Virus genome (UHGV): UHGV-0152227
Reading direction: 5' to 3' (one strand)
DNA: 43,955 bases
Origin: a virus
The notes under the pieces are model-generated. The model saw nothing but the letters and a program-made list of their open reading frames with translations. It searched no databases and was not told the origin of the DNA. This document shows positions 3,811-4,935 of the stretch, piece after piece (the stretch's first letter is position 1; every line of letters starts with the position of its first letter). Both the position numbers and the translations under genes were made by a program.

Positions 3811-3878
3811 TTCTATCAATCAAACACAAATTCAATTCATGAATTCACCGCCTCAATTAAACCATATTTGGTTTGCCC

Positions 3879-3907
3879 TTGCCTAGTGTCATTATTATTT
3901 ATATAGT
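3879..3907 (+). promoter_or_regulatory. sigma70-type promoter of the acetyltransferase moron
   Basis: TTGCCT (3879-3884), 17-bp spacer, TATAGT (3902-3907). No TTACC-N5-GGTAA operator is nearby. Confidence 0.5.
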
Positions 3908-3978
3908 GACATACCAACTTTCAAATTATAATTTATATATTTTAGGACCAAACCCAATACATTTTAAAAGGTGTAACA

Positions 3979-4830
3979 ATGGAATCTAATGCACTAAAAA
4001 AAGCACGACTATTTATAAATGACATAAAATATTGTGTTGAAAACTTTAATATCGATTCAACTTTATATACCGCTTTCAAGCCAAGTGATATTGGTGTTAA
4101 AGGAGATGAAAGCAATACAATATATGTTGCTGACGGTAAGCTTCCGGAAAAACTGATAATTGCTTTTGGAGAAAAGGCAAAAGACAGTAAAATATTTATT
4201 GGAAAAAATGTAAAATGCAGGGGATCGAGAATTGTAATAACTCACGGTGAAAGCCTTTGTTACATCGGAAATAACTCACAACTAAATAATGTAACTATGC
4301 ATATATGGTGCAAATGGGATTTTGTAGTGGTTGGAGAAGGTGTATCAGTTACCTCAACAAGTAATTGGACTACTGGAATAAACCCTGGCAATCCTTGTAA
4401 CGGCATTATTATTGGTGATCACTGCCTTATGAGCCAAGAAATATCTATTAGACCTGCAGATGGACACCAAATTATCGAACTCACCACGCGAAAAGTAGTC
4501 AACGCTGCAACATCACCTATTATAATCGAACCATATTGCTGGATCGGACAGCGCACAGCAATACTAAAAAATGTAAGAATTGGTGCATGCTCCATCGTTT
4601 CACTTGGTGCTGTAGTTACAAAATCATGTAAAAAATTCAGTGCGCTAAGTGGCGTACCAGCCAAAGCAAGATGCATTGAAGGAAAAATGTGGCTAAGAAA
4701 CAATGGGGAAGAAGCCAAGAGAATAATGCTTATGTATGAAAAAAGATTTGCAGGCACAGCAGACAGCAGCACAGCAGCACAGCAGCACAGCAGCACAGCA
4801 GCACAGCAGCACAGCAGCACAGCGAAATAA
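3979..4830 (+). CDS. hexapeptide-repeat (left-handed beta-helix) O-acetyltransferase, candidate surface-glycan-modifying conversion gene
   Basis: Hexapeptide repeats (IIIGDHCLMSQEISI, CWIGQRTAILKNVRIGACSIVSLGAVV). AAGGTG RBS. AT-rich and antiparallel to the flanking phage genes. 8 of 11 Arg codons are AGA/AGG. Confidence 0.8.
   Translation: MESNALKKARLFINDIKYCVENFNIDSTLYTAFKPSDIGVKGDESNTIYVADGKLPEKLIIAFGEKAKDSKIFIGKNVKCRGSRIVITHGESLCYIGNNSQLNNVTMHIWCKWDFVVVGEGVSVTSTSNWTTGINPGNPCNGIIIGDHCLMSQEISIRPADGHQIIELTTRKVVNAATSPIIIEPYCWIGQRTAILKNVRIGACSIVSLGAVVTKSCKKFSALSGVPAKARCIEGKMWLRNNGEEAKRIMLMYEKRFAGTADSSTAAQQHSSTAAQQHSSTAK
4755..4823 (+). repeat. octanucleotide tandem repeat (ACAGCAGC) x7 perfect, plus one imperfect 5' copy and a partial 3' copy
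   Basis: Perfect units run 4763-4818, a partial ACAGC at 4819-4823, and a 7-nt copy ACAGCAG at 4756-4762. The tract encodes (TAAQQHSS)n at the extreme C-terminus of the acetyltransferase. Confidence 0.95.
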
Positions 4831-4837
4831 TTATAAT

Positions 4838-4860
4838 AATGGCCGTAATGAGCGGCCATT
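4838..4860. terminator. bidirectional terminator hairpin between the convergent acetyltransferase and tailspike genes
   Basis: Stem AATGGCCG (4838-4845) / CGGCCATT (4853-4860), loop TAATGAG, with AT-rich runs on both sides. Confidence 0.65.
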
Positions 4861-4935
4861 ACATATTATTTATTATAGCATTAACTTATTAGATCCGCTA
4901 TTTTCTTTTCTTGTATCACCATATATAAATATTTA

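Follow-up and report, generated by a model that had tools for sequence, protein, structure and literature searches.

A prophage-borne, NeuO-family O-acetyltransferase gene with a 3' octanucleotide repeat, a candidate for the acetylase that separates K18 from K22 capsules in Escherichia coli

The locus and its inserted module

The virus genome UHGV-0152227 (43,955 nucleotides; this whole stretch of DNA is referred to below as the window) contains a prophage that adjoins the host genes yfgG, yfgH and yfgI and is integrated between yfgI and guaA. On the plus strand, at positions 3979-4830, lies a coding sequence for a protein of 283 amino acids (aa), the conserved body of which extends up to about residue 258 and which appears to be a left-handed beta-helix (LbH) O-acetyltransferase of the NeuO family. 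An earlier note on this DNA, drawn from the sequence alone, had described the gene as markedly AT-rich and antiparallel to its neighbors, and both statements hold. The gene body contains 36.5% guanine plus cytosine (GC), versus 50.7% in the lysis cassette, 46% in the tail-fibre gene and 50% in the remaining prophage, and the flanking holin and tail-fibre genes both lie on the minus strand. We describe herein the gene, the module that carries it and a hypervariable repeat at its 3' end, and suggest that it is the likely missing gene that turns the K22 capsule of Escherichia coli into K18.

The gene forms part of a module (3873..4916, +) that comprises a promoter-like region, the acetyltransferase gene, a tandem repeat of variable copy number (VNTR) and a hairpin, and that was delimited by a breakpoint, by its sharing among carriers and by its GC content. 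The left breakpoint is at about 3873, directly 5' of the -35 hexamer, where the alignment to sibling prophages stops; on the right, all carriers have the module in common as far as 4916, including those with a different tail-fibre gene. Sibling prophages with the same lysis cassette, at ~92-94% identity, were found in 566 of 5426 RefSeq complete E. coli genomes (~10%), a set that does not include the reference genomes of K18a, K18ab and K22, GCA_977946865, GCA_977946875 and GCA_977947955, respectively. An exact-protein look-up traced the window to the ENA metagenome assembly ERZ773393. In the two siblings that were opened at yfgI|guaA, the holin gene is followed by the tailspike gene ~300 nucleotides (nt) away, with no gene between. 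The acetyltransferase gene is thus a moron, as the earlier note had held, and a true insertion relative to the sibling prophages.

A sigma-70-like promoter motif, TTGCCT-17-TATAGT, was located by a consensus scan at 3879-3907 (+; -35 hexamer at 3879-3884, -10 hexamer at 3902-3907), and a Shine-Dalgarno-like AAAGGTG (3967-3973, +) can be read 5 nt upstream of the ATG. Both promoter hexamers are invariant in eight alleles, with variable columns at about 3874, 3876 and 3909. The claim that the gene has its own promoter stood as far as the conserved motif is concerned; counting against it, promoter-like sites in this AT-rich stretch (7) are in no excess over shuffled sequences (5.6 +/- 2.7), and for that reason its function is only putative. 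Downstream, where the acetyltransferase and tail-fibre genes converge, scanning and folding revealed a GC-rich hairpin (4837-4861) with a dG of -15.9 kcal/mol (z = -3.7 versus shuffles). It scores as terminator-like on both strands, in line with the bidirectional terminator proposed earlier, with U-tracts that are weak. The roles of promoter and terminator are both putative, being read from motifs.

On either side of the moron are the holin gene (3394-3819, -), its divergent neighbor and the first gene of the lysis cassette, recognized by Pfam Phage_holin_8 and by annotation with the Prokaryotic Genome Annotation Pipeline (PGAP) in carriers, and the gene for a tail fibre or tailspike of 923 aa (4936-7707, -), its convergent neighbor. 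In the latter protein, a virion adaptor at the N-terminus is followed by a unique central domain and, at the C-terminus, by a Peptidase_S74 chaperone.

A NeuO-type enzyme

Profile searches matched the protein to LbH families at sub-threshold scores. Pfam Hexapep was matched at 22 bits (E 1.2e-4), under its gathering score of 27, and many NCBIfam LbH families were matched, all far under their cut-offs. Modeled as a monomer with AlphaFold2 from an alignment of 43 homologues, the protein is predicted to form a beta-helix, with short beta-strands across residues 47-232 (predicted local distance difference test (pLDDT) score, 88.9; predicted template modeling (pTM) score, 0.86). The top matches of this model to the PDB in Foldseek are all LbH enzymes, with NeuO and OatWY filling ranks 1 to 8: NeuO (3JQY) came first at E 4e-11, followed by OatWY (2WLC) with a template modeling (TM) score of 0.78 and a root mean square deviation of 3.1 A over 204 columns. 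The description of the product as a 283-aa LbH acetyltransferase is thereby borne out by the open reading frame (ORF), the model and the structural matches alike.

Sequence comparison leads to the same relative. The best PDB sequence match is again NeuO (3JQY; E 1.6e-18, query residues 66-242), other matches being far weaker (OatWY 2WLC, E 1e-5). Because its identity to NeuO is just 28% over 161 aa, the enzyme is regarded as a relative of NeuO and not an orthologue. His147 and Trp171 of NeuO (3JQY numbering) are catalytically important (PMC3046976); they align with His163 (codon 4465-4467, +) and Trp188 (codon 4540-4542, +) of the query, and both residues are invariant across the 43-sequence alignment. 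Fold and catalytic residues together, the former as modeled and the latter as aligned, mark the product as a probable capsule-polymer O-acetyltransferase of the NeuO/OatWY type. The comparison by hidden Markov models and structure with the NeuO, WcaF, LacA and Oac families, which had been proposed as a check, put NeuO nearest, with WcaF and LacA at weak scores. A Pfam search of the protein did not find Acyl_transf_3, and the model is that of a soluble beta-helix.

A small-molecule or antibiotic acetyltransferase (Vat, CatB, LacA or Maa) was also considered as the nearest family and was rejected, with scores of 16-34 bits against cut-offs of 300-450.

Among 50,697 phage records, megablast with the module returned no match, and tblastn with the acetyltransferase returned distant matches only, of which NeuO of CUS-3 was the best.

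Co-occurrence with the K18_K22 capsule locus

K18 has the K22 backbone in acetylated form, and the two capsule gene clusters are 100% identical (PMC13171606, Nat Microbiol 2026). The same study found no candidate acetyltransferase within the K18/K22 clusters and placed it "outside the capsule locus". Because the clusters are identical and hold no acetyltransferase, its authors merged K18a, K18ab and K22 into a single genotype (PMC13171606).

Full-length matches to the prophage gene are present in 11 of the 5426 complete E. coli genomes. One carrier, PAR, has a group 2 kps locus, region 2 of which encodes a cytidine diphosphate (CDP)-ribitol synthase-like enzyme, a TagF-like polymerase and a third, unknown protein, and contains no sialic acid genes. 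When this region 2 was searched against the 5426 genomes by megablast, 19 genomes matched at 99% identity or more and another 113 at 88%. All 11 carriers of the gene fall within the 19, and none of the 113, which have the sister K100 locus, is among the 11 full-length matches. This gives a hypergeometric P of 2.5e-29, or 1.8e-18 if the 7 distinct strains are counted and 1e-10 if only 4 lineages are counted. Compared with those of EC958, which we take to be a K100 strain, the three region-2 proteins of the carriers show identities of 97.09, 98.91 and 82.07%. The published K18_K22-versus-K100 values are 97.098, 98.908 and 82.13% (PMC13171606 supplement). Because the three identities match, the kps locus of the carriers is assigned to K18_K22 on sequence.

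The capsule locus is constant among the carriers, and the O-antigen cluster varies: PAR is O75, MLI121 is O15 and AST205 is O7. The differing O types indicate at least three host lineages. A presence/absence pair is also available. AST19 shares its kps locus and country with the carrier AST205, yet has no prophage at yfgI|guaA. Annotation gives the host gene yfgH as frameshifted in EC0026B, AST205, E100341 and the prophage-free AST19 (2890-3409 in L003/L005/L007; 18302-18821 in L027), and as intact in the window (722-1228), PAR, MLI121, MLI114 and SW070919. Used as a lineage marker, the frameshift shows that the prophage can be present or absent inside one host lineage.

The earlier note had stated that the target glycan cannot be inferred from sequence, and had left the choice between an O-antigen and a capsule acetylase open. 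Comparative genomics has taken the matter further: it points to the group 2 capsule of K18/K22 type, which is probably the target, and away from the O antigen.

Homologues in other capsule loci

Members of the family share 45-72% identity over their full length, and most of those looked up adjoin TagF-like polymerases in ATP-binding cassette (ABC)-transporter capsule loci. The two nearest homologues outside E. coli (71-72% identity) lie directly downstream of genes for a TagF-like polymerase, a 457-aa cytidylyltransferase/short-chain dehydrogenase-reductase (SDR) protein (CDP-ribitol synthase) and a protein of ~380 aa, with identities to the K18_K22 region-2 proteins of 64% for the polymerase, 73-75% for the CDP-ribitol synthase and 49-51% for the ~380-aa protein. 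Judged by these genes, the two homologues sit in a K18-like cluster with a gene set equal to that of K18_K22 region 2. Homologues at 51-61% identity in Aeromonas caviae, Pantoea anthophila and Castellaniella also lie inside region 2 of ABC-transporter capsule loci (kpsMT/kpsD/kpsE/kpsCS-type), each adjoining a TagF-like Glyphos_transf polymerase.

E. coli itself has an in-locus paralogue, a region-2 acyltransferase of 262 aa (52% identity). The kps locus in which it lies also has galactosyltransferase and glycerophosphotransferase genes, and can be read as K2-like from this gene content. An in-locus K2 acetyltransferase has been proposed as the determinant of K2a/K2ab (PMC13171606).

Other genes accompany some of these homologues. 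In Aeromonas caviae, a GDSL/SGNH lipase-like gene (L008, 10776-11474) overlaps the 3' end of the homologue and could encode an O-acetyl esterase. A GDSL/SGNH gene that could have this role likewise overlaps the homologue in a metagenome contig (L025, 10788-11444), where the pair lies outside any capsule locus and beside a second hexapeptide protein. In the capsule locus of Pantoea anthophila, a 301-aa region-2 protein (L011, 9091-9996) encoded directly upstream of the homologue has a faint match to Pfam Phage_RBD_prop, the receptor-binding propeller of phages.

An octanucleotide repeat at the 3' end of the gene

Within its 3' end, the acetyltransferase gene contains an octanucleotide VNTR (4754-4823, +), to which Tandem Repeats Finder (TRF) assigned a period of 8, 8.9 copies and a score of 133. 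A degenerate unit, CAGCAGA (4757-4763), is followed by seven perfect CAGCAGCA units (4764-4819). It is the sole tandem repeat in the 44-kb window, and is absent from the account of the gene in the earlier note.

The number of perfect units differs widely between genomes: 1 in EC0026B, 7 in the window, 16 in AST205, 22 in PAR, 42 in MLI121, 43 in MLI114, 50 in SW070919 and 52 in E100341; two IMG/VR contigs have ~32 and ~3 copies by TRF count. The promoter region and gene body, 938 nt in all, have only 8 variable columns among 8 alleles. Flanks were compared on MAFFT alignments. Over 13,027 flanking nt, MLI121 and MLI114 are identical, with 42 versus 43 units, and AST205 and E100341 differ by one single-nucleotide polymorphism in 6.9 kb, with 16 versus 52 units. 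Since copy number differs between strains with near-identical flanks, the repeat mutates orders of magnitude faster than its surroundings. At the protein level, the cluster at 90% identity has 125 members, and the full-length members listed range from 264 to 365 aa.

Three units make up 24 nt, and (QQHSSTAA)n is the cyclic peptide read in each of the three frames. In every allele the conserved body, up to ...YEKRFA at about residue 258, is intact. Copy number sets the length of the tail that follows, from ~8 to ~140 residues, and also the frame in which the repeat is left. One of three endings results: a near-immediate stop (AK*, VI* or Q*); a hydrophobic tail of 22 residues (DIIIIMAVMRGHYILFIIALTY*); or, with one flank variant, a read-through of ~65 residues that passes the hairpin and enters the tail-fibre gene in antisense. 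The tail is disordered in the AlphaFold2 model, with a pLDDT below 50. Among the few alleles at hand, no frame bias was shown.

This repeat resembles the simple sequence repeats (SSRs) of contingency loci in being intragenic, in having a unit that is not a multiple of 3 and in varying in copy number among near-identical strains. It differs from them in that no frame-dependent on/off switch of the product was found, and only the extreme C-terminus changes. Because it lies after the catalytic body, the repeat cannot truncate the enzyme to an off state.

The carrier prophage and its relatives

According to PGAP annotation of the same prophage in PAR, the carrier is an epsilon15/phiV10-like podovirus. 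It encodes a gp10 capsid staple and a T7 gp14-like core protein, and its integrase gene abuts guaA. A tRNA-Arg gene (anticodon TCT; 27048-27124, +) lies between the portal and terminase regions of the prophage, and is also annotated in PAR.

Of the two siblings opened, that of the O1:K1:H7 strain NZ_CP126944.1 has an endosialidase tailspike (L020, 2704-5823), and that of PCN033 (L021) has a GH28-like tailspike. Across this prophage family, tailspikes are apparently matched to the capsule. In K18_K22 hosts the same moron is accompanied by two different tail fibres, one of 923 aa (4936-7707 of the window, -) and one of 1024 aa (L002, 7335-10409, -). All that they have in common is the first 209 aa, at 95% identity, and a C-terminal chaperone of weak similarity; their central receptor-binding domains are unrelated. 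One fibre might recognize the acetylated capsule and the other the non-acetylated form.

In the prophage of SW070919, an IS3-family insertion sequence (L006, 9937-11150) splits the tail-fibre gene into a "head-binding" fragment for the N-terminus and an ORF of 825 aa for the C-terminus. Although it is probably defective, this prophage keeps the acetyltransferase gene, with its 50 repeats.

Discussion

We consider it fairly probable, at about 70%, that an epsilon15/phiV10-like prophage carries the gene as a lysogenic-conversion moron, and that the gene product O-acetylates the K18_K22 capsule. The prophage would express, presumably in lysogens, a cytoplasmic, soluble, acetyl-CoA-dependent LbH O-acetyltransferase. 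By analogy with the action of NeuO on polysialic acid, the nascent ribosyl-ribitol-phosphate polymer, the presumed substrate, would be acetylated on the cytoplasmic side before export, and serotype K22 would thereby be converted to K18. By the same analogy, the modification may alter capsule antigenicity and lessen attack by capsule-targeting phages, relatives of the prophage included. O-acetylation by NeuO results in better survival against lytic K1 phage and neutrophils (PMC13001214). Slippage in the VNTR would vary the length of the disordered (QQHSSTAA)n tail and pick one of its three endings. In outline, the view of the earlier note that the gene is a serotype-converting acetylase moron beside a receptor-binding protein, like NeuO of CUS-3, is supported; in CUS-3, neuO likewise adjoins the tailspike gene.

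An alternative is that the enzyme acts on undecaprenyl-linked O units, as in classical serotype conversion by podoviruses. The moron occupies the site of conversion genes in epsilon15/phiV10-type phages, and the enzyme has weak NCBIfam similarity to WbbJ and WcaF. Against this stand the three unrelated O clusters of the carriers (O75, O15 and O7) as opposed to one constant capsule locus, the nearest relatives, which are capsule-locus genes together with NeuO and OatWY, and the fact that the protein is not an Acyltransferase_3 membrane protein. We reject the O antigen as a target because of the three O types, and give this explanation very little credence.

A further concern, and a point against capsule acetylation, is that the exclusive co-occurrence with K18_K22 could be due to nothing more than phage host range, should the tail fibres bind this capsule. 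The siblings bear capsule-specific tailspikes, so tropism by itself could confine a gene to one K type; the substrate might then be a small molecule, an antibiotic, a sugar or a cytoplasmic target in phage defence, and there are weak matches to maltose/galactoside and Vat/CatB acetyltransferases. A second point on the same side is a homologue at 62% identity (P0006) that lies outside a capsule locus and shares its small island with a GDSL esterase-like gene and another hexapeptide protein. Host range as the sole cause is nonetheless improbable, in our estimation, since one and the same moron accompanies two unrelated receptor-binding domains, the orthologues at 71-72% identity occur outside phages, within K18-like sets of capsule genes, and the scores for small-molecule acetyltransferases are far under the family cut-offs. 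Capsule acetylation therefore remains the explanation that we prefer.

The function of the repeat is a separate matter. The enzyme may well be a K18-type capsule acetylase in which the octanucleotide repeat is a neutral, slippage-prone microsatellite in a dispensable C-terminal tail, an explanation that we rate at somewhat less than an even chance. Several observations favor it and speak against a regulatory repeat. The conserved body stops at ...YEKRFA, and homologues in other species have short, unconserved tails without the repeat; the tail is predicted to be disordered; all three exit frames are found in nature, and 1 to 52 copies are tolerated; the allele found on the largest number of contigs among the members listed (P0072, 71 contigs) has a decayed tract and has lost the repeat; and the tail is without the basic residues that were invoked for the heptads of NeuO. 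On the other hand, E. coli has few long perfect SSRs, and the 44 kb contain no tandem repeat but this one. The one precedent in the literature searched, NeuO, is a homologous prophage-borne capsule acetylase that has an activity-tuning repeat. Moreover, the hydrophobic extensions that result from two of the three exit frames, of 22 or ~65 aa, can hardly be expected to be inert. A regulatory role of the repeat is, on balance, doubtful. Equally speculative is the broader proposal that the prophage acetyltransferase is a second, independently evolved "mobile contingency locus" and the basis of the K22/K18 split (perhaps also of K18a/K18ab), with a 3' VNTR that tunes or switches acetylation through the length and frame of the tail.

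The K18a and K18ab reference assemblies are 5,068,856 and 5,069,166 bp long, i.e., 310 bp apart (PMC13348134 Table 1), a gap that is compatible in size with some tens of 8-nt units and is in no way evidence for them.

In the literature searched, including the Kaptive E. coli paper, no prior link among K18, an O-acetyltransferase and a prophage was found, nor was a prior description of the octanucleotide repeat or of a second mobile contingency locus; and no prophage-borne, repeat-bearing capsule acetylase of E. coli other than NeuO has been described there. The gene is offered as a candidate for the K18/K22 acetyltransferase. If this is true, in silico typing could separate K18a, K18ab and K22, and a second case would point to recurrent carriage of hypermutable acetylases by capsule-targeting temperate phages. 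If the repeat were regulatory, it would represent SSR control from the 3' end of a gene, which is without described precedent in this enzyme family. Capsule acetylation also bears on phage susceptibility, immunogenicity and the design of vaccines and phage therapy (PMC13001214).

Comparison with known systems

The closest parallel is NeuO of CUS-3. Not only is it the best match in both sequence and fold, with the catalytic His and Trp kept, but it is also prophage-borne and encoded directly beside a tailspike gene. In both cases the target, inferred in the present one, is a group 2 capsule whose own locus is without an acetyltransferase, and in both a disordered peptide repeat is encoded by a hypervariable VNTR whose unit length is not divisible by 3. 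The differences are nonetheless considerable. The present enzyme has ~65 extra aa at its N-terminus, and its likely substrate is the ribosyl-ribitol-phosphate of K18/K22 rather than the polysialic acid of K1 hosts, with its alpha-2,8 linkages; its carrier phage is epsilon15-like, whereas CUS-3 is P22-like. In CUS-3, neuO has 19 copies of AAGACTC directly after the ATG. This 5' heptanucleotide repeat gates translation, and the RLKTQDS heptads that it encodes raise catalytic efficiency linearly (PMC3046976). The present gene has no repeat at its 5' end. Its 8-nt units are at the 3' end, so on/off truncation of the kind seen in NeuO is impossible, and whereas RLKTQDS contains Arg and Lys, QQHSSTAA contains neither. 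The system is therefore new relative to that of NeuO in phage family, in repeat unit, position and consequence and, as far as the inferred target goes, in capsule chemistry (ribitol phosphate).

The in-locus acetyltransferases of alditol-phosphate (teichoic-acid-like) group 2 capsules belong to the same family. Unlike them, resident genes without a repeat, this gene has moved to a prophage and has gained promoter-like and terminator-like signals together with a VNTR. OatWY of Neisseria meningitidis W and Y (2WLC) is likewise an LbH capsule-polymer O-acetyltransferase and the second-best structural match; it differs in being chromosomal, in acting on a sialic-acid heteropolymer and in its low sequence similarity. 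Finally, the Oac-type enzymes (Oac of Sf6 and the O157 acetylase of phiV10) also bring about lysogenic conversion by O-acetylation, and in phiV10-like phages the acetylase presumably lies in the same genomic neighborhood as this moron. These enzymes are, however, integral-membrane proteins of the Acyltransferase_3 type that act on the O antigen, in contrast to the predicted soluble LbH enzyme described here.

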